A stretch of DNA of 13,672 nucleotides from a virus, in the UHGV virus genome UHGV-0140246. The stretch is one strand, 5' to 3'. The position numbers and the translations under genes were made by a program. The notes beneath the pieces are model-generated. The model was not told where the DNA came from and did not search any database. It was given only the letters and a program-made list of their open reading frames with translations. Of the stretch, positions 1 through 13,672 are shown piece after piece (within the stretch, counting starts at the first letter, position 1; every line of letters begins with the position of its first letter).

Positions 1-1422
1 GTGAAATTATTCAGATTCTCTAAAGTAAAAATTGCAGAACTGCCAACGCCGGAACATGGACAAGTCGAATACGGTGATACGGAGGTTAACGGGTTGCGTG
101 TCCGTGTGGGTTCGTCAGGTGTGAAAAGTTTCTGCATTTCCCGTAAGCGTAACGGAAAATTTATTCGTGCAACGCTGGGGCGTTTTCCTGATCTGAGCGT
201 GGATAATGCCAGGGCTAAAGCTATGGAACTCCTTGGCGAAGTCGCCACAACGGGGAAAAACCCGAACATAGCGAAGCGCACGAACAACAAGGCCATGATA
301 ACGCTGAATGAGGCACTTGAAGCCTACATAAAAAATCGTGGCCACCGCCTGAAACCCACCACAGAAAAACAGTACCGCAGCATATTACAGAATTATTCCG
401 GTGACTGGATGGCCCATACCCTCGCCAGTATTTCCCGCGAACGTGTGGAACAGCGACATAAAGCCGTCACCGACGGGGCTGTATGGTTCGGTGCTGATAA
501 AACCACGCTACGGGCTGGTGTTGGTACGGGAAGCAAGGCACAGGCCGATTTATGGGCGCGTGCGCTGCGTGCTGTGTGTCGGTTTGCGCATGATCATTAC
601 CGTGATGATGCGGGTAATACTCTTTTACCGGATCCGCCGACTCTGGTACTGAGCACCAAGCGCCAGTGGCACGGAACGGTAAGAAAAACGGAACGTATCC
701 GCCTGCATGATTTTCCCCGCTGGTTTGCTGCTGTAGCTGCTGTACGCGAACAGGGCGAACAGGAAAGGGATGATATAGCGGTGACGGTATGCGATGCCGT
801 GGAAATGGCGCTTTTTACCGGACTGAGGAAATCAGAAATTTTTGGCCTTACGTGGGATCGCGTGAATATGGGCGGTCGTTTTTTCTGGATAGACACCACG
901 AAAAACGGGGATCCGCTCGAATTACCGATTACTGATACGTTGCGGGAAATGTTCCACCGCAGACTGAAAATAAAAAACGCTGATGATGTTCTGGTGTTCC
1001 CTGGTGTGAAGGGAGTGATTCAGGAAACACGGCACATCATAGACCGGATAAGCGCGGCTACTGTTTCTGATGATAATGATGAAATGCTCTCCCCTGTACC
1101 ATTCAAATGGCACGATGCGCGCCGGACGTTCGGGACGGTTGCCGAACTGGTGGGCGTGGGTAATTACATCCTCAAGCGCCTGATGAATCACCGCACTATG
1201 CGAAGTGCTGACGTAACGCAGGGGTATTTACATTTTGGTGCTGATGAACTGCTGGAGCCAGCATCACGGATAGAACGGGCAATTCTGGAAAATGCCGGGC
1301 TGGTGGAGAGTAAAAAATCTATCGATGCGCAATTGCTTTCTGTGCTGGAAAGCATGAGTGATGAAGAAAAACGGAAATTAATATTTTCTTTGATTCAAAA
1401 TGCAGAGGTGTCTAATAAATGA
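1..1422 (+). CDS. int: Tyrosine-type site-specific integrase (P4-like); the ORF begins with GTG at base 1, so the true start may lie upstream of the window
   Basis: 473-aa ORF; N-terminal arm-binding-like region (GLRVRVGSSGVKSFCISRKRNGKFIRATLGRFPDLSVDNARAKA); C-terminal catalytic region with WHDARRTF, MNHRTMRS and a candidate nucleophile Tyr in TQGYLHF; stop TGA 1420-1422. Confidence 0.85.
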   Translation: MKLFRFSKVKIAELPTPEHGQVEYGDTEVNGLRVRVGSSGVKSFCISRKRNGKFIRATLGRFPDLSVDNARAKAMELLGEVATTGKNPNIAKRTNNKAMITLNEALEAYIKNRGHRLKPTTEKQYRSILQNYSGDWMAHTLASISRERVEQRHKAVTDGAVWFGADKTTLRAGVGTGSKAQADLWARALRAVCRFAHDHYRDDAGNTLLPDPPTLVLSTKRQWHGTVRKTERIRLHDFPRWFAAVAAVREQGEQERDDIAVTVCDAVEMALFTGLRKSEIFGLTWDRVNMGGRFFWIDTTKNGDPLELPITDTLREMFHRRLKIKNADDVLVFPGVKGVIQETRHIIDRISAATVSDDNDEMLSPVPFKWHDARRTFGTVAELVGVGNYILKRLMNHRTMRSADVTQGYLHFGADELLEPASRIERAILENAGLVESKKSIDAQLLSVLESMSDEEKRKLIFSLIQNAEVSNK

Positions 1423-2219
1423 AATTTATCCCAGCAGATGAAGCCATTGATATGATGTTATCAAAAATGAACCATGAGGAAAAATTGGATTATTTAAAGG
1501 CAGCATGGGATTATGATTATAAAAAAATGAATGGGATACATTCTAAGTATGGTCTTTCATTTCCAATTCCTATCAGTGAATTAATGAGTGATGATGAGGC
1601 TAAAGAACTTGCTGGCGAAATGCTAAAATCACCAGTAACTGATGATGATATTATTTCTTCGATGTTGAATGAATTTGTTCCAGAAAGAAAAAGTAAGGTT
1701 TCTTTAGACGATTCTGTATCAATATTAAATGAGTTGCATCGGCTTGATTCTAATTTTAATAGTTTCAATGCCGCTAATCATTACCTTTCAGTATCATTGG
1801 GCGATGATGCTTTTACGGTGCTTAAGGCGTATTTATGTGCAGATGTTGCAGGCTGCGATAATCTTAAGAGTGATTTAATTAAGTTATATACTAAAATAAT
1901 TGTTAACTCATATCACGCTAAAGCATCTTCAATTGTTAGTAAGTCAAAAATCATCAGTGAAGACCGAAGTAAAGCAAAGAAAGGAAAAACAAACAGGCAT
2001 CAATCAACTGCGTTGGCTATAGCTGGTAGCACTTGGGAAAAATACCCTAATGCTAGTTTACCTGGGCTATCAGCAGAGATATACGCGCACTTACGCAATA
2101 AATGGAATGATGTCCCTGTAGTTGGGACTATAGAGAGATGGCTTAAGGAGTCGGGAATGAATCCAAAATCCCCGCAAAAAAATAGGGACTTTAAGTTAGT
2201 TATTGGAGACGAAGAATAA
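1419..2219 (+). CDS. Hypothetical protein, AT-rich cargo gene (266 aa), function unknown
   Basis: Long ORF whose ATG overlaps the int stop (ATGA at 1419-1422); I counted 20 G+C in its first 60 nt (about 33%), clearly below the GC-richer flanking genes; I recognise no motif in the translation. Confidence 0.6.
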   Translation: MKFIPADEAIDMMLSKMNHEEKLDYLKAAWDYDYKKMNGIHSKYGLSFPIPISELMSDDEAKELAGEMLKSPVTDDDIISSMLNEFVPERKSKVSLDDSVSILNELHRLDSNFNSFNAANHYLSVSLGDDAFTVLKAYLCADVAGCDNLKSDLIKLYTKIIVNSYHAKASSIVSKSKIISEDRSKAKKGKTNRHQSTALAIAGSTWEKYPNASLPGLSAEIYAHLRNKWNDVPVVGTIERWLKESGMNPKSPQKNRDFKLVIGDEE

Positions 2220-2258
2220 ATCCAGTTTTATCCCCTGTAATCCAGATTTCAGTCAGGT

Positions 2259-2288
2259 AAACCAGATATGAGATTTTGTATCTGGTTT
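2259..2288. promoter_or_regulatory. Perfect 10-bp inverted repeat AAACCAGATA-N10-TATCTGGTTT; candidate operator, or weak terminator of the upstream gene
   Basis: Read directly from sequence; a related half-site, TCCAGAT, sits at 2241-2247; followed by TTTT at 2286-2289; lies in the intergenic region between the cargo gene and the HTH genes. Confidence 0.4.
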
Positions 2289-2360
2289 TCCTATCTTCAA
2301 GACTTCCCCATCGCTAAATAACGTATACCTGTTCTTAATCAGAAGTATACGGTGATACTC

Positions 2361-2549
2361 ATGCATTTAGAAAAGATGACCCGCAAAGAAGCTGCTGAGC
2401 ATTTGGGGGTAAGTGTCCAGACGCTGGCGAATTGGGCCTGTACTGGCAAGGTAAAAATCCCTTTTCATAAGCTGGGGCGCAAAGTGCTGTATATGCGCTC
2501 TGATCTCGATGCTTATCTTGCATCCACTCGCAGAACGCAGACGGTGTAA
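2361..2549 (+). CDS. Small helix-turn-helix DNA-binding protein, excisionase/Xis-like; start uncertain (GTG 2352, ATG 2361 or ATG 2376)
   Basis: ORF translation contains MTRKEAAEHLGVSVQTLANWACTGKVKIPFHKLGRKVLYMRSDLDAYL, the pattern I associate with excisionase-type winged HTH proteins. Confidence 0.6.
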   Translation: MHLEKMTRKEAAEHLGVSVQTLANWACTGKVKIPFHKLGRKVLYMRSDLDAYLASTRRTQTV

Positions 2550-2559
2550 GGGGGGAGTG

Positions 2560-2763
2560 ATGGCTCAATTTGACCGCATAATCCGTGAGGCTGAATGCAG
2601 TAAGTTAACCGGGGTTAGCCGTACCACTCGCTATGAACTGGAGAAAAAAGGGAGCTTTCCGTCTCGCCGTAATCTTGGTGGGCGTTCTGTAGGTTGGTTG
2701 CTTTCCGAAGTTATGGACTGGGTGCAAAACCGTGACCGAGTTAATTCAGGTAAGGCAGCATAG
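2560..2763 (+). CDS. alpA: AlpA-family phage transcriptional regulator
   Basis: Internal ATG at 2560 preceded by GGGGGAG Shine-Dalgarno; translation MAQFDRIIREAECSKLTGVSRTTRYELEKKGSFPSRRNLGGRSVGWLLSEVMDWV fits the AlpA pattern (LTG-SR-T-Y, G-FP, GGRSV-W, EV-W). Confidence 0.7.
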   Translation: MAQFDRIIREAECSKLTGVSRTTRYELEKKGSFPSRRNLGGRSVGWLLSEVMDWVQNRDRVNSGKAA

Positions 2764-2776
2764 GGGGAGTGATGGC

Positions 2777-2808
2777 ACATAAAACAAAGGCGACCGGGGG
2801 CGGTCGCC
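2777..2808 (-). terminator. Candidate rho-independent terminator for the leftward (minus-strand) transcript
   Basis: Perfect 8-bp GC-rich stem GGCGACCG/CGGTCGCC with a 4-nt loop at 2789-2808; on the minus strand it is followed by TTTGTTTTAT (complement of 2779-2788). Confidence 0.45.
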
Positions 2809-2902
2809 AATGGATACACACTAAACTTGAACGCATCACCAACAATGCCACATTTGCGGCTGGTGGGCAATGTGATCAGTGTGCTGGCTTGCTGGTTGGC
2901 TG

Positions 2903-3085
2903 TCAGCCTTTGGGTTCTATGCCTTCTTTGCGTAGCTTATCACGACAAGCATTTTTTACCCATGAGCTGAAATTACCAGGCCCTGCAACTTCGTTAATTT
3001 GTTGCAACAATGTGTCTTCGAAGCGGATGTTTTTCTTTGTGCTGCCGGAGCGATCAAATTTTGGTTTCACATTTTCTTCTTGCAT
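2903..3085 (-). CDS. Small divergently transcribed DNA-binding-like protein (possible ribbon-helix-helix fold); candidate repressor
   Basis: 60-aa minus-strand ORF MQEENVKPKFDRSGSTKKNIRFEDTLLQQINEVAGPGNFSSWVKNACRDKLRKEG; predicted strand-helix-helix arrangement is my inference; its start codon abuts the palindromic operators. Confidence 0.5.
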   Translation of the reverse strand: MQEENVKPKFDRSGSTKKNIRFEDTLLQQINEVAGPGNFSSWVKNACRDKLRKEGIEPKG

Positions 3086-3107
3086 TGGTACGTACCATCG
3101 TTATAAA
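3080..3107 (+). promoter_or_regulatory. Candidate sigma70 promoter for the rightward icd-to-primase operon
   Basis: -35-like TTGCAT (3080-3085), 16-bp spacer, -10-like TATAAA (3102-3107); the spacer is occupied by operator copy 1; the -35 match is weak. Confidence 0.35.
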
Positions 3108-3130
3108 CTGAAATCAAATGGTACGTACCA
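3086..3130. promoter_or_regulatory. Two copies of a perfect 12-bp palindrome TGGTACGTACCA (3086-3097 and 3119-3130), centre-to-centre 33 bp; candidate paired operators
   Basis: Read directly; each copy is its own reverse complement; located between the divergent minus-strand gene and the icd-like gene. Confidence 0.65.
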
Positions 3131-3160
3131 CATTAAAAATACGCAACCATTAAATACAGC

Positions 3161-3195
3161 GAAGCCCGGCAGTGCGGGAACACTAACCGGGCTTC
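3161..3195. other. Perfect 9-bp inverted repeat GAAGCCCGG-N17-CCGGGCTTC in the leader upstream of the icd-like gene; candidate RNA stem-loop or protein-binding site
   Basis: Read directly from sequence; no U-tract follows on the + strand. Confidence 0.4.
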
Positions 3196-3230
3196 TAACC
3201 ACCAACGATAGAAAGCGTATCGAGGTAGCT

Positions 3231-3434
3231 ATGTTAAATCATACCACACACCCGCAAGGGCGGGACTCGCACAACCTGAATAAATACATCTGGCGTTTTA
3301 TCGCCCTGAGCACGGCACAACCGCGCGTGATTACCATTGAGGCCACCAGCGAACAGGAAGCACGCCAGCAATCCCCGGCTGGCTGCGTGATGGTATTCGC
3401 CGCCCGTATTCGTCAGGGGGTGTGCCATGCCTGA
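3231..3434 (+). CDS. Icd-like small protein (host cell division inhibitor-like, as found in P4-type elements); assignment from memory
   Basis: Internal ATG at 3231 of the 2769-3434 ORF, preceded by GAGG at 3222-3225; translation MLNHTTHPQGRDSHNLNKYIWRFIALSTAQPRVITIEATSEQEARQQSPAGCVMVFAARIRQ. Confidence 0.5.
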   Translation: MLNHTTHPQGRDSHNLNKYIWRFIALSTAQPRVITIEATSEQEARQQSPAGCVMVFAARIRQGVCHA

Positions 3435-3747
3435 TATGTCAAATTACCAGTACCTGATTAATCCGCATTTTAACTGTGAGCATGATATTGCTAAAAAGGT
3501 TTATTCCGCTGCGGATGGGGCTACTGACAATATATCAATGGCTGTTGCGTCAATTGGTAGCCTGATGTGGCATGCGTCAGAAAATGAGGACTATGACGAA
3601 AAGGCCATGCGCATTGATATGGGTAATATTGGTTTGTTACTGGCAATGCTTGGACATTTTGATATTTCGTTACGGTGCACCATTGAAAATGCCACAGATG
3701 CATTAAATGCTATAAAGAAAGCGAATACTGATTCAAATCGGGGATAA
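3427..3747 (+). CDS. Hypothetical protein (106 aa)
   Basis: ORF overlaps the icd-like stop (ATGCCTGA); AGGGGG Shine-Dalgarno 7 nt upstream; lower GC than neighbours by eye. Confidence 0.55.
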   Translation: MPDMSNYQYLINPHFNCEHDIAKKVYSAADGATDNISMAVASIGSLMWHASENEDYDEKAMRIDMGNIGLLLAMLGHFDISLRCTIENATDALNAIKKANTDSNRG

Positions 3748-3753
3748 ATAATC

Positions 3754-4053
3754 ATGAGAACATATTTATCTGGCTTGACTGCCAGCGGTTATGCACACCC
3801 CAAAATTATCCCCGGCGCTATTTATCTGGATAAGAACGGTAACAGAGTAACGGTAAAAGAACTGATGTTTGACCGTGTGTATTTTATTCGTGATGGCTAT
3901 TCATTTCATAGTTCGCTGAACGTGGAGATCTTTATTAGCAGATTCAGGCGGGAAATCCCGCTTTCCAGAAAAAACCATGTGTCACGTGTGAATGTGGATA
4001 AAAAACTACAGGAACTGAAAAACATGATTGCCGCGTGGAGAGAGCAGAAATGA
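3754..4053 (+). CDS. Hypothetical protein (99 aa)
   Basis: ORF whose stop overlaps the start of the primase gene (ATGA at 4050-4053). Confidence 0.55.
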   Translation: MRTYLSGLTASGYAHPKIIPGAIYLDKNGNRVTVKELMFDRVYFIRDGYSFHSSLNVEIFISRFRREIPLSRKNHVSRVNVDKKLQELKNMIAAWREQK

Positions 4054-5867
4054 AAAAAGCGCCAAATTTAAAACACCAGCCGCGTGACAAAATGACGGAA
4101 GTCATCATTTTTGCGGGTAGTGATGCGTGGGCACATGCGAAGCAGTGGCAGGAACAGGACGGGCGACTGGCTGGCGATAACGTGCCTCCTGTCTGGCTTG
4201 GAGAGCAACAACTTGCCGAACTGGACAACCTGCAAATCGTACCGGACGGACGCTATCGCGTGCGTCTCTATCAGGCGGGGTTATTGCGTCCGGGGCTTGT
4301 TAATACCATCGGGCAGAAACTGGCAGCGGCAGGTGTCAGGGATGCTGATTATTACCCTGAAGGAATGCACAGCCAGAAACGGGAGAACTGGCGCGAATAT
4401 CTGGAACGTGAGCGGGGAGAGCTGGCGGAAAAGAAAAAGGTAGTTGAACTGCCTGTAAAGAAAAAAGAGCGGGTAAAAGACGATAACGCTTCATCACTGG
4501 CGCTTAACCAGATGGGAGCAAGTCAACGCGGCGAAGTTCTCCTGGCACATTATGGCGGTGAACTGGCGATTCATGCCGACTCTGACACTGTTCACCATTA
4601 CAACGGCGTTGTATGGGAGCCGGTTCAGGATAAAGAGTTACAGCGTGCTATGGCGCAGATTTTCATTGATGCGGAGATCAGCTATTCGCAGAACGCCATT
4701 AAATCGGCGGTCGATACCATGAAGTTAAGTTTGCCTGTAATGGGGAATACAGCCCGTAACCTGATTGGATTCAGTAACGGGGTATTTGATACCAGAACAG
4801 GTAATTTTCGGGAGCATAACAAAAACGACTGGTTGTTAATTGCCAGTGAATTACCTTTCAGCCCACCAGCAGAGGGGGAAACGCTGGCAACACATGCGCC
4901 GAATTTCTGGAAGTGGTTACGCCGTTCGGTGGCTGAGAATGACCGCAAGGCGGATCGCGTACTGGCTGCATTATTCATGGTGCTGGCGAACCGGTACGAC
5001 TGGCAGTTATTCATTGAGGTAACAGGTCCAGGGGGAAGTGGTAAAAGCGTGATGGCGGAGATTTGCACCATGCTGGCGGGTAAGGCCAACACAGTATCGG
5101 CAAGCATGAAGGCGCTGGAAGATGCAAGGGAACGCGCGTTAGTGGTTGGCTTTTCGCTGATTATCATGCCGGATATGACCCGCTACGCTGGTGATGGGGC
5201 AGGGATTAAGGCTATTACAGGCGGTGACAAGGTGGCAATTGACCCGAAACACAAAGCCCCCTACTCAACGCGTATTCCGGCAGTAGTGCTGGCGGTTAAC
5301 AATAACGCCATGTCATTCAGTGACCGCAGTGGGGGGATCTCACGTCGTCGGGTGATATTCAATTTTTCGGAAGTTGTACCGGAGAACGAACGTGATCCAA
5401 TGCTGGCGGAAAAAATAGAAGGTGAGCTGGCGGTAGTGATTCGCCATCTGCTTACACGGTTTGCTGACCAGGACGAAGCCAGACGCCTGTTATATGAGCA
5501 GCAGAAATCTGAAGAAGCACTGGCGATAAAGCGAGAGGGGGATTCGCTGGTGGACTTCTGCGGCTATCTCATGGCGTCGGTAATGTGTGATGGCCTGTTA
5601 GTGGGTAATGCTGAAATTGTGCCATTCAGCCCACGCAGGTATCTCTATCATGCCTATCTGGCTTATATGAGGGCACATGGGTTTGGTAAACCTGTAACAC
5701 TGACGCGCTTCGGTAAAGATATGCCGGGGGCAATGGCGGAATATGGCAGGGAGTATATGAAACGGAAAACGAAGCACGGTTTGCGTTCAAACGTGACACT
5801 GACGGAGGAATCAGAAGACTGGATGCCATCATGTGTATCGGTCACTAATGACGATAGCAAAAATTAA
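4050..5867 (+). CDS. Primase/helicase replication protein (P4 alpha-like, P-loop NTPase); start probably ATG 4050 rather than GTG 4035
   Basis: About 605-aa ORF; Walker A motif TGPGGSGKS in the central region; GGAGAG Shine-Dalgarno before ATG 4050; an iteron cluster lies immediately downstream. Confidence 0.7.
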   Translation: MKKAPNLKHQPRDKMTEVIIFAGSDAWAHAKQWQEQDGRLAGDNVPPVWLGEQQLAELDNLQIVPDGRYRVRLYQAGLLRPGLVNTIGQKLAAAGVRDADYYPEGMHSQKRENWREYLERERGELAEKKKVVELPVKKKERVKDDNASSLALNQMGASQRGEVLLAHYGGELAIHADSDTVHHYNGVVWEPVQDKELQRAMAQIFIDAEISYSQNAIKSAVDTMKLSLPVMGNTARNLIGFSNGVFDTRTGNFREHNKNDWLLIASELPFSPPAEGETLATHAPNFWKWLRRSVAENDRKADRVLAALFMVLANRYDWQLFIEVTGPGGSGKSVMAEICTMLAGKANTVSASMKALEDARERALVVGFSLIIMPDMTRYAGDGAGIKAITGGDKVAIDPKHKAPYSTRIPAVVLAVNNNAMSFSDRSGGISRRRVIFNFSEVVPENERDPMLAEKIEGELAVVIRHLLTRFADQDEARRLLYEQQKSEEALAIKREGDSLVDFCGYLMASVMCDGLLVGNAEIVPFSPRRYLYHAYLAYMRAHGFGKPVTLTRFGKDMPGAMAEYGREYMKRKTKHGLRSNVTLTEESEDWMPSCVSVTNDDSKN

Positions 5868-5878
5868 ACTTATGGAAT

Positions 5879-6111
5879 AACTGTTCACCACTGTTCACCC
5901 TGTCATAAATATCTTTTGTATCAGTATGTTATAGGGTGAACAGTTATTTATGAACTGTTCACCAAACTATTCACTGTTCACCTTTTTGATTGTTTATTGA
6001 GCTTCAAGGGTGAACAGTGGTGAACAGTTGGTGAATAGTTTTTGTGAAACTGTTCACCCCTTAACATTATGAATTAAAAGATAAAATATCAAAAGGTGAA
6101 CAGGTGAAGGG
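5879..6111. repeat. Iteron cluster, candidate origin of replication: about 11 copies of TGTTCACC / GGTGAACA in both orientations within an AT-rich intergenic region
   Basis: Forward copies at 5882-5889, 5892-5899, 5956-5963, 5975-5982, 6051-6058; reverse copies at 5935-5942, 6009-6016, 6019-6026, 6095-6102; degenerate copies at 6030-6037 and 6104-6111. Confidence 0.75.
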
Positions 6112-6154
6112 TTAAAACGCAAAAATTTTAATTTACTGCTGTGAGATAAAGCCT

Positions 6155-6400
6155 ATGACAGCGAAGCACACAAAAAAATCACAATCGCACGCCCTTGATT
6201 TGACGGAACACTGGTTAAGGGTGTCGATAAAAATCATCGACCGCAACGCCGGGGAAGGATATGCGAAAGCACATCCCGAACTGATTAGCTCATTCATGAC
6301 AACGGCAGCTGCAAACTTTGCCACGCTGACAGAACGGGAGATTGCCGAAGCGGAACAGGTGACAACCATCAACGTTAAAACCGGAGAGCAGACAGCATGA
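6155..6400 (+). CDS. Hypothetical protein (81 aa)
   Basis: ORF co-oriented with the operon; its stop overlaps the SSB start (ATGA at 6397-6400); weak ribosome-binding site. Confidence 0.45.
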   Translation: MTAKHTKKSQSHALDLTEHWLRVSIKIIDRNAGEGYAKAHPELISSFMTTAAANFATLTEREIAEAEQVTTINVKTGEQTA

Positions 6401-6819
6401 CAGCACAGATAGCAGCTTACGGGCGGCTGGTGGCTGACCCGCAGTTAAAGACCACCAGCAAGGGCACACAAATGGCTATGGCAAGCATGGCGGTCCACCT
6501 GCCGTGCAATCAGGCAGATGACGGACAGGCGACGATGTGGTTATCCGTCCTGGCGTTTGGCAGACAGGCCGACGCACTGGCAAAACACCACAAAGGCGAG
6601 CTGGTGAGCGTGGCGGGTAACATGCAGGTAAGCCAGTGGACAGGCCAGAACGGGGAAACGCGGCAGGGCTGGCAGGTTATCGCAGACAGCGTAATCAGTG
6701 CCAGAACGGCGCGACCTGGTGGCAAAAAAGGCCAGCAGGGTCAGGCTACTGACGCTCTAAATAGGGCTAAGCAACAGGCGGGGAATGATGATCCATACGG
6801 GGATAACATACCCTTTTAG
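6397..6819 (+). CDS. Single-stranded DNA-binding protein-like (SSB-like)
   Basis: 140-aa ORF; N-terminus MTAQIAAYGRLVADPQLKTTSKG resembles the start of an SSB OB-fold; Gly/Gln-rich linker; C-terminus DDPYGDNIPF resembles the acidic SSB tail ending in IPF. Confidence 0.65.
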   Translation: MTAQIAAYGRLVADPQLKTTSKGTQMAMASMAVHLPCNQADDGQATMWLSVLAFGRQADALAKHHKGELVSVAGNMQVSQWTGQNGETRQGWQVIADSVISARTARPGGKKGQQGQATDALNRAKQQAGNDDPYGDNIPF

Positions 6820-6836
6820 CGATAACAGGGGGATAC

Positions 6837-7085
6837 ATGCCAGTGACATTTGAAGAAGTTCAGCAACATAAAAAGTTTCATGGTATTGATGATCTGGAAA
6901 CCACGACAGCAAAAAAATATCGCCGTCTGCTTTCTTCCGATGCGTTATTTGTTGTGGATCATCATGATTTTCTGCGCAGCTCACTGACCGGGGAAATTTT
7001 CGCAACCAACCGTGAGCAGGTGGAAGCGATGATCGAATATTTGTGGAAAATAAGGCGCAGAATGCGCGATCCCGTGAAACAGTAA
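6837..7085 (+). CDS. Hypothetical protein (82 aa)
   Basis: ORF preceded by GGGGGA Shine-Dalgarno; followed 10 nt later by a strong terminator. Confidence 0.5.
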   Translation: MPVTFEEVQQHKKFHGIDDLETTTAKKYRRLLSSDALFVVDHHDFLRSSLTGEIFATNREQVEAMIEYLWKIRRRMRDPVKQ

Positions 7086-7094
7086 AGCGATAAA

Positions 7095-7122
7095 GGCCCG
7101 GATTTTTCCCGGGTCTTTTTTT
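7095..7122 (+). terminator. Rho-independent terminator ending the replication operon
   Basis: Stem GGCCCGG / CCGGGTC (7095-7101 and 7109-7115) with a 7-nt loop, followed by seven T (7116-7122). Confidence 0.7.
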
Positions 7123-7359
7123 CAGGTTTTGTAAATTATTTGTTCGTGGTTGTTTCTGGCTGTTCAGTGATTCTGGCTGATATTTACATACTGATTTTTA
7201 TGTATATGTTGGCGTGTGGCACTCAGACGTGAGCCGCCACAATGCCGCCTGACCCCCTGCGCGATGCCGGGTTGATCTGCGAGATGCCGAGAGTGTCGGG
7301 CGGCGCTCCCTCCGTGTTGGTTTCACGTCCTGAATCTTAACCAATACGAGAAAACCTTC

Positions 7360-8529
7360 ATGAAGAAATTAATCGAACTCCGCCAGCAAAAAACCGCCCT
7401 GAAAAACCAGATGCGATCCCTGCTGGAAAAAGCCGACAGTGAAAACCGCAGCCTGAACGATGACGAGGGCAAACAGTTTGATGAACTGCGTGCAAAAGCC
7501 GACTCCCTCGACACAGAAATTTCCCGCCTCGAGTCTGTGGCTGATGAAGAACGCAGCAAGCCAGGAACGGGCATCCAGAAATTATCATCTGATGAATTGC
7601 GTAACTACATCGTAACCGGAGATGTGCGATCACTGTCCACCAGCACTGACAGCGGCAGGGATGGCGGATATACCGTAATTCCTGAGCTCGATCGCGAAGT
7701 CATGCGCCAGCTACAGGATGACAGTGTTATGCGCGTGATCGCGACCGTGAAGACTGCAAAATCAAATGAGTTTCAGAAACTGGTTTCCACTGGCGGCGCA
7801 ACTGTAGGACGAGGCACAGAAGGCAGCGCACGCAGTGAAACCAACACCCCGAAAATTGAACGCGTAACCATCAAGCTGAATCCGATCTACGCCTACCCGA
7901 AAACCACGCAGGAAATCCTTGATTTTTCAGAGGTGGATATTCTGGGCTGGTTATCCTCCGAAATTGCCGACACGTTCGCCAGCACCGAAGAGGATGATTT
8001 TGTTAATGGCGACGGTAACGGCAAGCCGAAAGGCTTCATGGCTTACACCCGTGCGGCGACCAGTGACAAAACCCGCGCTTTTGGCACCATTGAAAAAATG
8101 GTAGCGGCAAGTGGAACCGCCATTACAGCGGACGAACTGATCGACATTCTCTACAAGCTGAAAGCGAAATACCGCAAAAATGCCGTCTGGGTGATGAACT
8201 CGGGCACGGCAGGGACACTACAGAAGCTGAAAAATGAGAACGGCGATTATATCTGGCGCGACAGCCTTAAAGAAGGTGCGCCGGATATGTTGCTTGGTCG
8301 TCCTGTTTACTGCCTGGAGTCCATGCCGGACATCGGCGCAGGAAAAGCACCGCTAGCGGTTGGCGATTTCAGTCGTGGTTATTTCATCGTTGATCATGTA
8401 ACAGGGATTCGCACCCGACCGGACAACATTACTGAACCCGGATTCTACAAGGTCCACACGGATAAATATCTGGGCGGTGGTGTGGTGGATTCAAACGCCA
8501 TCAAAATTCTGGAAATGAAAGCTGGCTAG
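7360..8529 (+). CDS. Major capsid protein, HK97 family
   Basis: 389-aa ORF; N-terminal coiled-coil-like region (MKKLIELRQQKTALKNQMRSLLEKAD...) followed by GGYTVIPELDREVMRQLQDDSVMRVIATVKT, typical of HK97-fold capsid proteins. Confidence 0.8.
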   Translation: MKKLIELRQQKTALKNQMRSLLEKADSENRSLNDDEGKQFDELRAKADSLDTEISRLESVADEERSKPGTGIQKLSSDELRNYIVTGDVRSLSTSTDSGRDGGYTVIPELDREVMRQLQDDSVMRVIATVKTAKSNEFQKLVSTGGATVGRGTEGSARSETNTPKIERVTIKLNPIYAYPKTTQEILDFSEVDILGWLSSEIADTFASTEEDDFVNGDGNGKPKGFMAYTRAATSDKTRAFGTIEKMVAASGTAITADELIDILYKLKAKYRKNAVWVMNSGTAGTLQKLKNENGDYIWRDSLKEGAPDMLLGRPVYCLESMPDIGAGKAPLAVGDFSRGYFIVDHVTGIRTRPDNITEPGFYKVHTDKYLGGGVVDSNAIKILEMKAG

Positions 8530-8540
8530 TCATGAGTAAG

Positions 8541-8563
8541 GAGGAGGCTGCGGCCTCCTTTTT
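8541..8563 (+). terminator. Hairpin plus T-tract immediately after the capsid gene; candidate partial terminator/attenuator
   Basis: Stem AGGAGGC / GCCTCCT (8542-8548 and 8553-8559), 4-nt loop, then TTTT (8560-8563). Confidence 0.45.
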
Positions 8564-8583
8564 CAGCTTTATGGAGTACACCG

Positions 8584-9144
8584 ATGAAAAACACCGATTT
8601 TGAAATCCGCACATCTGAACTGACCGCCAGCAATAAAAAGCTGGTGGGGTATGCCGTTCGCTGGAACAGCCTTTCAGAAATTATCTGGGACGAATTCCGC
8701 GAACAGTTCACGCCGGGGGCTTTTGCTGACTATCTGGCGGCGGGTAATGATGTGCGCTGCCTGTATGAGCATGACTATACCCAACTGCTGGGGCGCACCA
8801 AATCCGGCACTCTGGTACTGACTGAGGATAACACCGGGTTACGTTTTGAACTGACACCGCCGGATACCCAGCTTGGAAAAGATGTGCTTACGCTGGTGGA
8901 GCGTGGCGACATTACAGGAATGAGCTTTGGTTTTCGCGCATTATGCGAGGAGTGGAGTATCGCGCAAAAACCGTATTTGCGTACCGTAACCGCCGCTGAA
9001 CTCCGTGAAATCACAATAACGTCGATGCCTGCTTATCCAGAATCTGGCGTGGAGATTGCCCACCGTTCGTTGTTTGCACAGCACCCTGAATTATGCCCGA
9101 CAGGAAATAATCGTCATCGCTGGTCTGAGCTGGCGGGGTTGTGA
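8584..9144 (+). CDS. Prohead maturation protease, HK97 family
   Basis: 186-aa ORF; LVGYAVRWNSLSEIIWDEFREQFTPGAFADYL and ITGMSFGFR motifs match my recollection of HK97-type prohead proteases. Confidence 0.75.
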   Translation: MKNTDFEIRTSELTASNKKLVGYAVRWNSLSEIIWDEFREQFTPGAFADYLAAGNDVRCLYEHDYTQLLGRTKSGTLVLTEDNTGLRFELTPPDTQLGKDVLTLVERGDITGMSFGFRALCEEWSIAQKPYLRTVTAAELREITITSMPAYPESGVEIAHRSLFAQHPELCPTGNNRHRWSELAGL

Positions 9145-9145
9145 T

Positions 9146-10360
9146 ATGTGGTGGCCTTTTAGTCGTAAAAAAAGCGAGCAGCGTAACCTGTCCATTGATG
9201 ATTTTCTGGCGCTGTCCGGCGTACCGAATACCGGATCCGGAGAATATGTTTCTGCCGGGACGGCTGAATCATTGCCTGCAGTGATGAATGCGGTTTCTGT
9301 CATCGCTGAGGCGGTGGCCACGATGCCGTGTTATCTGTATCTGGTACGTAATGACAAGGGCAGGGAGGCGCGGGAATGGCTGGACAGTCACCCGGTAGAT
9401 ATTCTGCTGAATGAGCAGCCTAATTCGTGCCAGACACCTTACCAGTTTAAACGCACAATGATGCGTCACTGCCTGCTGAACGGTAACGCCTATGCGGTTA
9501 TTGAGTGGGGGCAGGACGGGCAGCCAAAATCACTTCATCCTTATGCGCCGGGGTGTGTTGTACCGGAACGCACAGGCGCACACAAATACCGCTATACCAT
9601 CACCGAACCCTATACAGGAACGGTGCGCACGTATTTACAGGAAGAAGTTCTGCATCTCCGCTATGCCTCGGATGATGGCTTTCTGGGGCGCTCCCCCGTC
9701 ACGATTTGCCGTGAGGCACTTGGGCTTGGCCTTGCTCAACAGCGCCACGGAGCCAGCATTATGAAAGATGGCATGATGGCGGCAGGGATTATCACGTCAG
9801 GCGAATGGCTGGACGGCGTGAAAGGTAAACAGGCATTGGATGCTCTGGAACGCTACAAGGGGGCGAAAAATGCCGGAAAAACGCCAATCCTTGAAGGGGG
9901 CATGGATTACAGGCAACTGGGAATGAGTAACCAGGATGCGGAATGGCTGGCCTCCCGTCGCTTCTCCATTGAAGACATCGCCCGCATGTTCAACGTATCG
10001 CCTATTTTTCTGCAGGAATACAGCAACAGCACCTACAGCAATTTCAGCGAGGCAAGCCGCGCGTTTCTGACCATGACAATGCGCCCGTGGCTGGCGAACT
10101 TCGAACAGCAAATCAAGGCCGCTTTGCTGGTGGCTTCTCCCGTACCTGGTACCCGTTATCTGGTTGAGTTTGATTCAGCCGATTTATTACGCGCCACACC
10201 CACCGAACGTTATGCCACGTATGAGAAAGGGATTAAGAACGGGATCATGAATCCGAACGAAGCCCGTGAGCGTGAGGGTATGCCGCCGCGTGAAGGTGGT
10301 GATGAGTTCAGCCAGGCATGGAAACAGACTGTGGAAATTAAAGGGAGAAAAGATGATTGA
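9146..10360 (+). CDS. Portal protein, HK97 family; start taken as ATG 9146, 1 nt after the protease stop
   Basis: About 404-aa product; LPAVMNAVSVIAEAVATMPCYLY motif near the N-terminus; the ORF is open from 9056 but that would overlap the protease gene by about 90 nt. Confidence 0.75.
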   Translation: MWWPFSRKKSEQRNLSIDDFLALSGVPNTGSGEYVSAGTAESLPAVMNAVSVIAEAVATMPCYLYLVRNDKGREAREWLDSHPVDILLNEQPNSCQTPYQFKRTMMRHCLLNGNAYAVIEWGQDGQPKSLHPYAPGCVVPERTGAHKYRYTITEPYTGTVRTYLQEEVLHLRYASDDGFLGRSPVTICREALGLGLAQQRHGASIMKDGMMAAGIITSGEWLDGVKGKQALDALERYKGAKNAGKTPILEGGMDYRQLGMSNQDAEWLASRRFSIEDIARMFNVSPIFLQEYSNSTYSNFSEASRAFLTMTMRPWLANFEQQIKAALLVASPVPGTRYLVEFDSADLLRATPTERYATYEKGIKNGIMNPNEAREREGMPPREGGDEFSQAWKQTVEIKGRKDD

Positions 10361-10655
10361 AGCCAGAATTACACCTGATGAAGTCAGGGCACATCTTCGA
10401 CTTGATGATGATTTATCCGGTGAAGGCGAACTTCTGAAAATGTATACCGATGCGGCGCTGGAAGCCTGCCAGAAGCATATCGGGAAACGTTTTGAAGACG
10501 GGCTGGAATTTACCCCGGCAATGCGTGTTGGTTGCCTGATGTACATCGCTTTCCTGTACGAGAACCGGGAAGCGGTTTCACCAGTGGAGCACTCGGAACT
10601 GCCTATGGCTATTTCTGCGCTCTGGTCAGTTTATCGTGACGTAGGGGTGTACTGA
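10353..10655 (+). CDS. Head-tail connector protein (gp6-like)
   Basis: Internal ATG at 10353 preceded by GGGAGAAAAG; translation MIEARITPDEVRAHLRLDDDLSGEGELLKMYTDAALEACQ resembles the gp6-like connector family; overlaps the portal stop. Confidence 0.65.
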   Translation: MIEARITPDEVRAHLRLDDDLSGEGELLKMYTDAALEACQKHIGKRFEDGLEFTPAMRVGCLMYIAFLYENREAVSPVEHSELPMAISALWSVYRDVGVY

Positions 10656-11095
10656 TGCCGTGGCAACCATTAAGGCGATGCACTGAGCCTGGCTGTAATA
10701 AGCGCGTGAAGTCCGGCAAGTGTGAAGAGCACAGGCGGGCTGCATGGCGTGCAGAGGATGCCAGACGGGGACACCGCCGCGCGCGCGGGTATTCCCGACA
10801 GTGGGACAAATACCGCGCCCTGTACCTGAGCAAAAACCCGTTATGCGTGCGTTGTCTGGCTAAGGGGATTTATACGCCAGCTCTTGTGGTGGATCACATC
10901 ATTCCCATCAATGGCGGCGGTGATGTTCTCTTCTGGCCTGAGTGGAATCACCAGGCATTGTGCCAGACGTGCCACAACCGTAAGACGACACGGGAAGATC
11001 CAGCCACGAAAGCAAACCGTAAAGCGGGCATGTATCGCGAGCAGGAAGAACGGGCGGCACACCGTAACGACTGGATGTATGGCGATGATGACTGA
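10655..11095 (+). CDS. HNH endonuclease (phage packaging-associated)
   Basis: 146-aa ORF; Cys-rich N-terminus; HNH-like core DHIIPINGGG...NHQALCQTCHNRKT; located immediately upstream of the terminase genes. Confidence 0.8.
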   Translation: MPWQPLRRCTEPGCNKRVKSGKCEEHRRAAWRAEDARRGHRRARGYSRQWDKYRALYLSKNPLCVRCLAKGIYTPALVVDHIIPINGGGDVLFWPEWNHQALCQTCHNRKTTREDPATKANRKAGMYREQEERAAHRNDWMYGDDD

Positions 11096-11264
11096 ACAGG
11101 AGCAAACCAGGCTGATACGTGGACTGATAAGGCAGCGTGACACATGGAAGACACAGGAGACAGAGCACAAAGCCAACAGGACAGGGCGCACAAAACGCAC
11201 CACAGCGAAGCGATTAACCGACCGTGACCGCGAGGTCATGGAATGTTTTCGCAATCGCTGGTGA
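11079..11264 (+). CDS. Possible small basic protein overlapping the HNH 3' end in another frame; existence uncertain
   Basis: ORF from ATG 11079 (alternative ATGs at 11085 and 11088) encoding MAMMTEQEQTRLIRGLIRQRDTWKTQETEHKANRTGRTKRTTAKRLTDRDREVMECFRNRW; no clear Shine-Dalgarno. Confidence 0.3.
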   Translation: MAMMTEQEQTRLIRGLIRQRDTWKTQETEHKANRTGRTKRTTAKRLTDRDREVMECFRNRW

Positions 11265-11383
11265 GGCCGTCAGAGGGGGTGGGGGTGGTTTTCAGGACGA
11301 AACCGTCCCTGCCGGACACCGACCGCCCCCTCAAATTTTTGTGCACGGTAATTTTTTTGAAAATAATTGGGCGAAAAAAGAAC
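11265..11383. other. Candidate cos/packaging-signal region between the HNH gene and terS
   Basis: G-runs CAGAGGGGGTGGGGGTGG (11271-11288); nested inverted repeats GAGGGGG (11273-11279) / CCCCCTC (11326-11332) and GGACG / CGTCC (11295-11308); followed by AT-rich T-tracts 11336-11357. Confidence 0.4.
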
Positions 11384-11740
11384 ATGGCAAGACCACCAAA
11401 AGCCCCCGCTTACCTGGATGAAATCGCGGTCAGGCAGTGGAAGGAAAAATCGCGCCAGCTTTCCGGGCGGGAAGACCTTACCCCCGCCGACTGGAGCAAT
11501 CTGGAACTGTATTGCGTTAACTACTCCATATACCGCAAAGCCGTCGAAGACCTTGCGACGCGCGGGTTCAGCATTGTTAACAGTCAGGGCAGCGAGAGCA
11601 GAAACCCCGCCCTGAGCGCAAAGGCTGACGCAGAAAGAATAATGATCAAAATGGCTTCTTTGCTGGGTTTTGACCCGGTAAGCCGCCGCAGAAATCCACC
11701 GGAAACAGAGGAAGAGGACGAGCTTGACTGCCTGGCATGA
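11384..11740 (+). CDS. terS: Terminase small subunit, P27 family-like
   Basis: Internal ATG at 11384; N-terminus MARPPKAPAYLDEIAVRQWKE matches what I recall of P27-family TerS; about 118 aa; the ORF is open from 11243 but that part overlaps the cos-like region. Confidence 0.7.
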   Translation: MARPPKAPAYLDEIAVRQWKEKSRQLSGREDLTPADWSNLELYCVNYSIYRKAVEDLATRGFSIVNSQGSESRNPALSAKADAERIMIKMASLLGFDPVSRRRNPPETEEEDELDCLA

Positions 11741-13385
11741 GTACGCAGAAGGCGTAAAAAACGGCAAAATTACGGCCTGTAAACGACTGAAACAGGCCGT
11801 TAAACGGTATTTTTCTGACCTTGAAAACCCCCTTTACACGTTCGATCCGGAGGTCGTTGAGCGGTTTATTGCCTTTTCCAGGGTGTGTCCGCACGTAAAA
11901 GGCGCAATGCGTGGTAGCCCCATTGAGCTGGAGCCGTGGCAGCAGTTCGCCTTTGCGTGCATCCTGGGCTTTAAGGTTAAGGCCACCGGACGGCGCAAAT
12001 ACACCAGCGCATTCATTGAAGTACCGCGAAAAAATGCCAAATCCACGGTCGCCGCTATCCTGGCTAACTGGTTTCTGGTTATGGAAAACGGGCAGCAGGA
12101 TATTTACACCGCCGCCGTGAGTCGTGATCAGGCGCGGATCGTGTTTGATGATGCGCGTCAGATGTGCCTTTTATCCCGACCGTTACGAAAGCGGGTAAAT
12201 ATTCAGGCACACAAGGTGATACACCCGAAAACCAACAGCCTGTTAAAGCCACTGGCAGCAAAAGCAGCAACCATTGAAGGTACAAACCCGAGTCTTGCCA
12301 TTGTGGATGAATATCACCTGCACCCTGACAACGGGGTTTATTCCGCGCTTGAACTGGGAATGGGGGCACGCCCAGAGGGGCTGTTATTTGCCATCACCAC
12401 ATCGGGGAGCAACGTTGTTTCAGCCTGTAAACAACACTACGACTATTGCTGCCAGATACTGGATGGTGAAGAGGTGAACGAATCCATGTTCGTGCTGATT
12501 TATGAGCTGGATGATGAAAGCGAGGTTGACGATCCGGCGATGTGGATAAAGGCGAATCCCAATATCGATGTTTCCGTAGATCGTGAAAAACTGGCCTCAA
12601 CCATCCAGAAAGCGCGGGGTATTCCGTCGCAGTGGGTGGAAATGCTCACCAAGCGATTCAATATCTGGTGTCAGGGGGCTACGCCGTGGATGGGTAACGG
12701 TGCATGGGCTGAGTGCGCCGGAACGTTCACGGAGGAAGATTTACACGGTCAGGAGTGTTACGCGGGGCTTGATTTATCATCCACAAGCGACATCTCCAGC
12801 GTGTGCTATGCCTTTCCGGTTGGTAAAACCATTATGCTGGTTTCTCGTCACTATCTGCCGGAATTTCAGCTACAGAACCCCGCCAATAAAAACCGCGCCA
12901 TCTATCGCCAGTGGGCAAAGGCGGGCTGGATACGCACAACACCGGGTGACTGCATTGATTATGACCGTATCCGTGATGACATCATGCTGGATGCAGAGAA
13001 TTTCAATATCAGGCTGGTGGGCTTTGATACGTGGAACGCCACGCACCTGAGAACGCAGTTACAGGGGGCAGGCTTTGAGGTGGAGCCGTTCCCTCAAACC
13101 TACCTTCGTTTCAGTCCGGCGGCGAAATCGTTCGAGGTTTTTGTTAACCGGAAGGTGATTGTGCATCGTGGTGATCCTGTGCTGGCCTGGTCAATGAGTA
13201 ATGTTGTGATGCAGAGTGACGCGAACGCCAATATCAAGCCGAACAAGAAAAAATCATCCAACAAGATAGACCCGAGCGTTGCGGCGCTGATGGCGTTTGG
13301 CACATTCCAGGCTGAGCATGAGGAATTTGCATTTGATATGAGCGACAGCCAGAAAGAGCGACTAGCGGCGTTTGATGGGGTATGA
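11724..13385 (+). CDS. terL: Terminase large subunit; apparent TTG start at 11724 with GAGGA Shine-Dalgarno 5 nt upstream
   Basis: 553-aa ORF overlapping the terS 3' end by 17 nt; first in-frame ATG lies about 60 codons further in; size and position after terS fit a large terminase. Confidence 0.8.
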   Translation: MTAWHEYAEGVKNGKITACKRLKQAVKRYFSDLENPLYTFDPEVVERFIAFSRVCPHVKGAMRGSPIELEPWQQFAFACILGFKVKATGRRKYTSAFIEVPRKNAKSTVAAILANWFLVMENGQQDIYTAAVSRDQARIVFDDARQMCLLSRPLRKRVNIQAHKVIHPKTNSLLKPLAAKAATIEGTNPSLAIVDEYHLHPDNGVYSALELGMGARPEGLLFAITTSGSNVVSACKQHYDYCCQILDGEEVNESMFVLIYELDDESEVDDPAMWIKANPNIDVSVDREKLASTIQKARGIPSQWVEMLTKRFNIWCQGATPWMGNGAWAECAGTFTEEDLHGQECYAGLDLSSTSDISSVCYAFPVGKTIMLVSRHYLPEFQLQNPANKNRAIYRQWAKAGWIRTTPGDCIDYDRIRDDIMLDAENFNIRLVGFDTWNATHLRTQLQGAGFEVEPFPQTYLRFSPAAKSFEVFVNRKVIVHRGDPVLAWSMSNVVMQSDANANIKPNKKKSSNKIDPSVAALMAFGTFQAEHEEFAFDMSDSQKERLAAFDGV

Positions 13386-13672
13386 CGAGAATGACTGAAA
13401 CTGATCTACTAAAAATAATTCGCCGCATTACCGGAATCAGTCAGCAGCCTGACGAACAGGCTACACAGCCGGACAGCGTGATAGCCGAAAATTACGCGCG
13501 TGTGGTGGCTGAGGTAATGCGCCGTGACGGTATTGAGCTTAACGGCGTGGATATGCGCAACATACGAACCAGAGTTCTTGAGTTGCTGGCATACCGTCGC
13601 CGTTCTCAACAACGGAGGGAGAGCGCGAAAAATACTTACCAGTGGAGGAAGCCGGAGCACTTACGGCGGTAA
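13382..13672 (+). CDS. Hypothetical protein (96 aa), last gene of the packaging operon within the window
   Basis: ATG overlaps the terL stop (ATGA at 13382-13385); stop TAA at 13670-13672. Confidence 0.5.
   Translation: MTRMTETDLLKIIRRITGISQQPDEQATQPDSVIAENYARVVAEVMRRDGIELNGVDMRNIRTRVLELLAYRRRSQQRRESAKNTYQWRKPEHLRR

Follow-up and report, generated by a model that had tools for sequence, protein, structure and literature searches.

What is the function of the dense cluster of short repeats that lies directly behind a helicase gene in UHGV virus genome UHGV-0140246? The 13,672-nucleotide stretch of this genome analyzed here (the window) carries an Escherichia coli capsid-forming phage-inducible chromosomal island (cf-PICI). 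The octamer TGTTCACC recurs in one of its intergenic regions, which a model working without database searches (the sequence-only reading) had proposed as a candidate origin. Our results indicate that positions 5880-6112 are very probably the vegetative replication origin of this integrated island, because the repeats (iterons) and the binding domain of the helicase encoded upstream co-vary across relatives, because helicase and iterons are exchanged jointly in a natural cassette swap, because the layout matches the origin of the island EcCICFT073, which was tested by plasmid maintenance, and because a 10.8-kb circular record has the same cassette. These four lines of evidence support the candidate origin.

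The cluster contains 12 iterons (9 exact and 3 degenerate) between 5882 and 6110. Exact copies of TGTTCACC start at 5882, 5892, 5956, 5975, and 6051 on the plus strand (5 sites) and at 5935, 6009, 6019, and 6095 on the minus strand (4 sites). These nine copies fall within 221 bp (5882-6102), and none of them lies outside the intergenic stretch. The whole 13.7-kb window holds 10 copies, compared with 0.53 expected from 200 dinucleotide-preserving shuffles of the window, none of which reached 10. A search with mismatches allowed showed that the full repeat behind the octamer is the 10-mer ACTGTTCACC, and the following degenerate iterons were added:

5966-5973, plus strand: degenerate iteron TATTCACT
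6030-6037, minus strand: degenerate iteron TATTCACC
6103-6110, minus strand: degenerate iteron CCTTCACC

The first iteron lies 15 bp past the stop codon of the helicase gene (5865-5867), and the next open reading frame (ORF) opens at 6155. The GC content of the cluster region is 34%, compared with 50% for the window. The sequence-only reading had thus correctly described about 230 bp of AT-rich DNA directly downstream of the primase/helicase gene, with tandem pairs at 5882-5899 and 6009-6026 and with five forward and four reverse exact copies. Its total of about 11 sites was one short, since the degenerate copies number three rather than two. The tenth exact copy (4589-4596) is located inside the helicase gene as part of a full 10-mer ACTGTTCACC at 4587-4596. 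This isolated 10-mer is present in the near-identical loci L003 and L087 and missing in diverged relatives, and it is probably due to chance.

By alignment, the cluster is composed of two six-iteron units of about 125 bp in inverted orientation, with the following parts, of which unit B corresponds to the origin ori1 of the satellite P4:

5880-5982, plus strand: origin unit A, with iterons at 5882+, 5892+, 5935-, 5956+, 5966+ (TATTCACT), and 5975+
5900-5934, no strand: AT-rich spacer of unit A, 26% GC, position conserved in relatives, candidate melting site
5983-6008, no strand: central spacer between the inverted units and dyad centre, 26 bp, 27% GC
6009-6112, minus strand: origin unit B, an inverted copy of unit A collinear with P4 ori1, with six iterons at 6009-, 6019-, 6030- (TATTCACC), 6051+, 6095-, and 6103- (CCTTCACC)
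6059-6094, no strand: AT-rich unit B spacer with 17% GC, equivalent to the AT-rich DNA amid the P4 ori1 iterons

In each unit, two tandem iterons are followed by the AT-rich spacer of about 35 bp, one inverted iteron, and three iterons spaced 10-11 bp apart. The offsets within the cluster are 0+,10+,53-,74+,84+,93+ in unit A and, as its mirror image, 127-,137-,148-,169+,213-,221- in unit B, and the two units are alignable with each other when B is taken as the reverse complement. An inverted-repeat search returned the arms 5866-5901/6007-6042 (83% complementary) and 5910-5965/6028-6083 (75% complementary). The centres of all 12 sites are in phase at a period of 10.5 bp (R=0.84, Rayleigh p ~2e-4), and no phasing signal was obtained at 9.5, 10, or 11 bp. 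A scan of 5868-6124 found no DnaA box (at most one mismatch) in or beside the array, which is what a DnaA-dependent iteron plasmid origin would carry; the nearest, with one mismatch, is at 6222-6230. DnaA-box-like 9-mers (TTATCCACA, at most one mismatch) occur 12 times in the whole window, compared with 3.3 expected from shuffles. Two of them are exact, examples are found on the minus strand at 3993-4001 and 12541-12549, and none is in the iteron array. No Rfam family was assigned to the cluster in a permissive search. Plant and animal microRNA hairpin models matched 5883-6111 below threshold (best 45.7 bits, gathering threshold 249), and these matches are artefactual because the two inverted units make an imperfect palindrome of about 230 bp.

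The gene directly upstream codes for a superfamily 3 (SF3) helicase related to the P4 alpha protein, with the following parts:

4050-5867, plus strand: gene for a P4-alpha-like SF3 helicase and origin-binding protein, 605 aa from the ATG at 4050
4050-4454, plus strand: N-terminal domain of about 135 aa, possibly with a Toprim-like fold, outside the swapped cassette
5538-5828, plus strand: C-terminal winged-helix origin-binding domain (residues 502-598, numbered from 4035)

The ORF of the helicase opens at a GTG at 4035, and the RefSeq start is equivalent to 4050. Pfam returned only D5_N, DUF5906, and Pox_D5 for this protein, with PPV_E1_C as a weak match. The protein is 48% identical to residues 290-771 of P4 alpha, and its residues 502-598 match the origin-binding domain of P4 alpha (PDB 1KA8, E=1.8e-24), with the wing motif KRKTKHG-LRSNVTL. 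Binding of type I iterons by P4 alpha is established (Ziegelin et al., 1993, as cited in PMC8628076).

The DNA of the cluster is related to P4 as well. GenBank record X51522 annotates 8-bp "ori type 1 repeats" in P4 at ori (9310-9413) and crr (4314-4585). These repeats are TGTTCACC/GGTGAACA, and there are six at ori and five in each of the two 120-bp repeats of crr. When 5800-6200 was compared with phage records by sensitive BLAST, 6004-6076 aligned with P4 9304-9378, which is annotated as "origin of DNA replication" and "ori type 1 repeat". A single unit of about 125 bp emerges when unit A and the reverse complements of unit B and P4 ori1 are aligned with the two crr units. The minimal P4 ori1 is 123 bp long, and the offsets in its reverse complement are 0+,10+,53-,75+,86+,96+. 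The octamer that the sequence-only reading had named as the iteron of P4 ori and crr therefore agrees with the P4 reference, and the tie to the P4 lineage that it drew is borne out by the identity to alpha, the PDB match, and the BLAST alignment. It had also described the primase as shorter than P4 alpha. This is correct, and the reason is that the zinc-ribbon/Toprim primase module is missing, which makes the primase-dependent replication that it expected the weak part of its proposal.

Several features of the N-terminal region bear on priming. In a domain search, P4 alpha matched Zn_Ribbon_Prim and Toprim_3, whereas the window protein matched neither. The first ~135 residues gave a confident AlphaFold model (pLDDT 83), but this domain has no zinc ribbon and lacks the EG and DxD acidic residues of Toprim. 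At the Toprim EGxxD/DxD positions, the family of the window protein has an invariant AGSDA and no acidic pair. The word "primase" in the RefSeq name "DNA primase family protein" stems from the helicase region (TIGR01613). In other E. coli islands, the same N-terminal domain is fused to DUF927 or RepA-like AAA_25 helicases, with the recombination joint at 4470. Judged by these residues, the N-terminal primase-like domain is probably inactive, self-priming by the helicase is doubtful, and the island may draw its primers from host DnaG. The same inverted origin of two units accompanies full-length alpha-like proteins with zinc ribbon and Toprim in Xenorhabdus and Zobellella. Therefore, the origin is tied to the helicase and its binding domain and not to the type of N-terminus.

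The co-variation of iterons and binding domain was seen in a survey of 80 loci encoding relatives of the helicase in Enterobacterales, Zobellella, and Oceanisphaera. A cluster is located directly after the gene in most of these loci, the commonest octamers there are TGTTCACC-like in most, and such octamers hardly occur in the rest of each locus (~6 kb). Most commonly among the surveyed relatives, the two units stand side by side and inverted, and the split ori1/crr of P4 would be the unusual form. Four loci from Pantoea and Ewingella (L081-L084) have no iteron-like repeat in the 500 bp after a full-length alpha-like gene (55% identity), and the origin of these loci may be located elsewhere, as it is in P4 (ori1). 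In about 20 diverged loci that were checked, the site layout was kept and the octamer changed, with at least six iteron sequences among them; the alternative octamers in relatives are TGTCTACC, TCTCCACC, TGTCCGCC, TATACACC, GTATACC, and GTGTTCAT. Iteron class and the wing of the binding domain vary together. The wing K[RK]K[ST]KxG[IL]RSN goes with TGTTCACC-type sites in ~70 loci including P4, a GPDKGR insertion in the wing goes with TGTCTACC in 4 loci, and two further wing variants each have their own octamers. The rule is not strict: EcCICFT073 has TGTCTACC with a different wing, and in the close pairs L074/L077 and L079/L080 the iterons differ with few changes in the wing segment.

Matches to the origin covering at least 80% of its sequence were found in 668 of 5,426 complete E. 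coli genomes, and none of 30 origin matches sampled across the ranking lay under an annotated feature. The median E. coli genome with any origin match has two matching places. Several Xenorhabdus genomes have four or five such loci, so co-residence is tolerated in the integrated state.

A sibling island in E. coli CFSAN064036 (L004) is 98-99% identical to the window over 1-4470 and 6364-13672, and nothing between is alignable. The exchanged block is as follows:

4471-6363, no strand: replication cassette exchanged as a block in the alignment with L004, comprising helicase core, binding domain, iteron array, and orf81

In the L004 cassette, a gene for a DUF927-family helicase precedes six TAACCCGCA repeats, and TGTTCACC does not occur. 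Its terminase, HNH, and capsid genes are near-identical to those of the window. Exchange of the repeats in an island whose packaging genes stayed the same ties them to the helicase rather than to the terminase. At L004 7197-7321, two TGCGGGTTA and four inverted TAACCCGCA repeats surround an AT-rich stretch, which looks like a different, unrelated type of putative origin carried by the same island backbone.

The layout is the same in EcCICFT073, for which a functional origin has been reported. Over its full length, N-terminal domain included, the EcCICFT073 Pri-Rep protein shares 49% identity with the window protein, and the iterons downstream of its gene (TGTCTACC) have the offsets 0+,9+,57-,77+,88+,97+ and 130-,141-,209-,218-. 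A clone carrying EcCICFT073 rep and the downstream ori kept a temperature-sensitive plasmid at 44 C, and the rep and ori mutants failed (PMC6092414). In that paper, the origins of Gram-negative PICIs are described as two iteron sets flanking an AT-rich region, directly 3' of the replication gene (PMC6092414). Its authors state that no other known replicon has this layout (Fillol-Salom et al., 2018; PMC6092414), and P4 and PICIs are argued there to have evolved independently (PMC6092414).

The cassette was further found at 97.8% identity and with identical iteron offsets in a circular E. coli record (L087, NZ_CP148328.1, 10,790 bp), which is deposited as a plasmid and for which no replicon type is listed. 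This record provides circumstantial support for an extrachromosomal form. It is a PICI-like island with integrase, AlpA, Icd-like, and DUF4222 genes and the same helicase-origin cassette, and its morphogenesis module differs in having a ClpP-like protease/capsid fusion.

The following mechanism can be proposed. The C-terminal winged-helix domain of the helicase (4050-5867) would bind the iterons, all twelve of which lie on one face of the helix, and the iteron-bound protomers may distort the DNA and open an AT-rich spacer. SF3 helicase hexamers would then assemble, probably one per unit and facing in opposite directions. Such a double hexamer might give bidirectional theta replication once the helper phage induces the island, and the adjacent second unit would take the role of the distant crr of P4. 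Priming would probably be performed by host DnaG, aided by the SSB of the island; DnaG is proposed because the window protein lacks the zinc-ribbon/Toprim primase of P4.

Several points weigh against an origin in 5880-6112. We infer iteron binding, melting, and initiation in the window element from sequence. The window protein has no recognisable primase, so the P4 mechanism is not transferable whole. In P4, crr-type arrays are required in cis, yet initiation takes place at ori1, and one unit of the window could likewise act only as an enhancer. The circular record may stem from an excised circle that does not replicate and was caught by the assembler.

One alternative is that the whole array is a crr-like cis enhancer or a copy-control (handcuffing) site and that opening and initiation occur elsewhere, as at P4 ori2. 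The array does sit where P4 crr does, directly after the alpha stop codon, and unit A aligns with the crr units; P4 ori2 is said to lie, free of iterons, inside the alpha gene. We consider this explanation unlikely, as unit B is collinear with P4 ori1 itself, AT-rich stretch included, the window has no second iteron cluster but just one non-conserved copy at 4589, and EcCICFT073 pri-rep with the downstream ori maintained a plasmid. That the repeats are operators for the downstream genes (orf81, ssb, packaging) or for autoregulation, bound by the helicase or another island protein, is less probable again. No sigma-70-like promoter and no terminator were found in a scan of 5700-6500, and an array of twelve phased sites that includes AT-rich spacers and is collinear with a mapped origin has the layout of an origin. 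A protein bound to an array between co-directional genes could nevertheless stop read-through, and iteron-binding initiators often autoregulate. An operator role is compatible with origin function, and the two are not exclusive. The cluster might also be a cos or pac packaging signal of the island terminase, given that cf-PICIs package their own DNA with HNH, TerS, and TerL and that packaging sites can hold repeats, or else a chance low-complexity repeat. Both possibilities are hardly credible. The near-identical terminase, HNH, and capsid genes of L004 go with wholly different repeats, which changed with the helicase, and a chance repeat is excluded by the shuffles described above. Taken together, a vegetative replication origin is the explanation we prefer.

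The genes around the origin are those of a cf-PICI. The window has integrase, AlpA-like regulator, Icd-like, DUF4222, helicase, and SSB genes, together with a packaging and morphogenesis module of HK97-type capsid, prohead protease, portal, connector, HNH endonuclease, TerS, and TerL (HNH, TerS, and TerL in 10655-13385). The genes of the element are all on one strand, and no tail or lysis genes were found among the genes of the window. This content agrees with the published gene criteria for cf-PICIs. In E. coli 181.1, the element is located between nfeF and a tRNA-Ile gene. The two genes following the origin are:

6155-6400, plus strand: orf81 (phrog_1231), function unknown, inside the swapped cassette
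6397-6819, plus strand: the element's own SSB, likely a replication accessory (Pfam SSB, E=4.9e-17)

No association of orf81 with the origins of relatives was observed. Upstream of the helicase gene, a 221-aa ORF (2769-3434) has an Icd-like domain at its C-terminus only; RefSeq places a short Icd-like CDS and a small antisense ORF there (YlcI/YnfO family in the sibling), and strain 181.1 diverges most from the window in this interval. A 106-aa ORF at 3427-3747 was considered as a relative of P4 ORF106, which lies upstream of alpha, and gave no alignment.

Origins located 3' of PICI replication genes and the type I iterons of P4 are both already known. What appears to go beyond the published accounts consulted is the unit-level homology of PICI and cf-PICI origins with P4 ori1/crr, the prevalence of adjacent, inverted units in the surveyed relatives, the matched series of iteron and binding-domain classes, and the probably inactive primase-like domain. 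The published descriptions of cf-PICIs consulted contain no discussion of origin or iterons, and our results annotate an origin for a satellite type whose published description omits one. Each unit of the PICI layout has homology to the units of P4 ori1/crr, in contrast to the 2018 description of a layout found in no other known replicon. The matched iteron and binding-domain variants and the clean swap could be used to derive recognition rules for alpha-type winged helices or to build orthogonal replicons. In addition, the "DNA primase" annotation in these islands is probably attached to proteins unable to prime.

As cf-PICIs, PICIs, and P4-like satellites share a homologous origin unit, and often the same iteron, we tentatively raise the possibility of cross-talk between co-resident elements, with the iteron and binding-domain classes as the product of escape selection. 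The median of two matching places per matched E. coli genome leaves room for such cross-talk among satellites sharing an iteron. If it occurs, P4 alpha with its active primase could fire the window origin in trans, or the primase-less helicase could alternatively occupy P4 ori/crr and interfere. The iteron and binding-domain classes would then reflect selection to escape cross-activation or incompatibility.

The window origin can be compared with several known systems. Papillomavirus E1 and SV40 large T are SF3 helicases with their own origin-binding domains, acting at inverted sites beside AT-rich DNA. The likeness to the window is one of analogy only, as their binding domains are unrelated to that of the window protein. 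The resemblance to EcCICFT073 is closer. Both origins lie immediately 3' of the replication gene and have the same site layout, two iteron sets flanking AT-rich DNA, so that the window shows the features of a PICI or cf-PICI origin together with homology to an experimentally tested PICI replicon. The icd-like, DUF4222, orf, and ssb neighbours are shared as well. The two differ in that EcCICFT073 has TGTCTACC in place of TGTTCACC and another binding-domain wing, and is without the full packaging module.

With P4 ori1/crr, the window shares the octamer TGTTCACC, the type I repeat iteron, and the ~125-bp six-iteron unit round an AT-rich spacer of ~35 bp with near-helical spacing. The helicase and its alpha-type origin-binding domain are homologous, and the array follows the initiator gene, as P4 crr does. 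In P4, three units are found at two sites 4.5 kb apart (ori1 and two direct crr units), whereas the two units of the window are adjacent, 26 bp apart, and inverted, and the window has no other iteron cluster that would make up a bipartite layout of ori1 and distant crr. P4 alpha has its own zinc-ribbon and Toprim primase, which the window protein lacks. P4 is a satellite with sid, psu, and delta, and the window element, a cf-PICI, has capsid genes of its own. The PICI origin layout is said to match no other replicon, yet the window origin aligns with P4 ori1 and crr.
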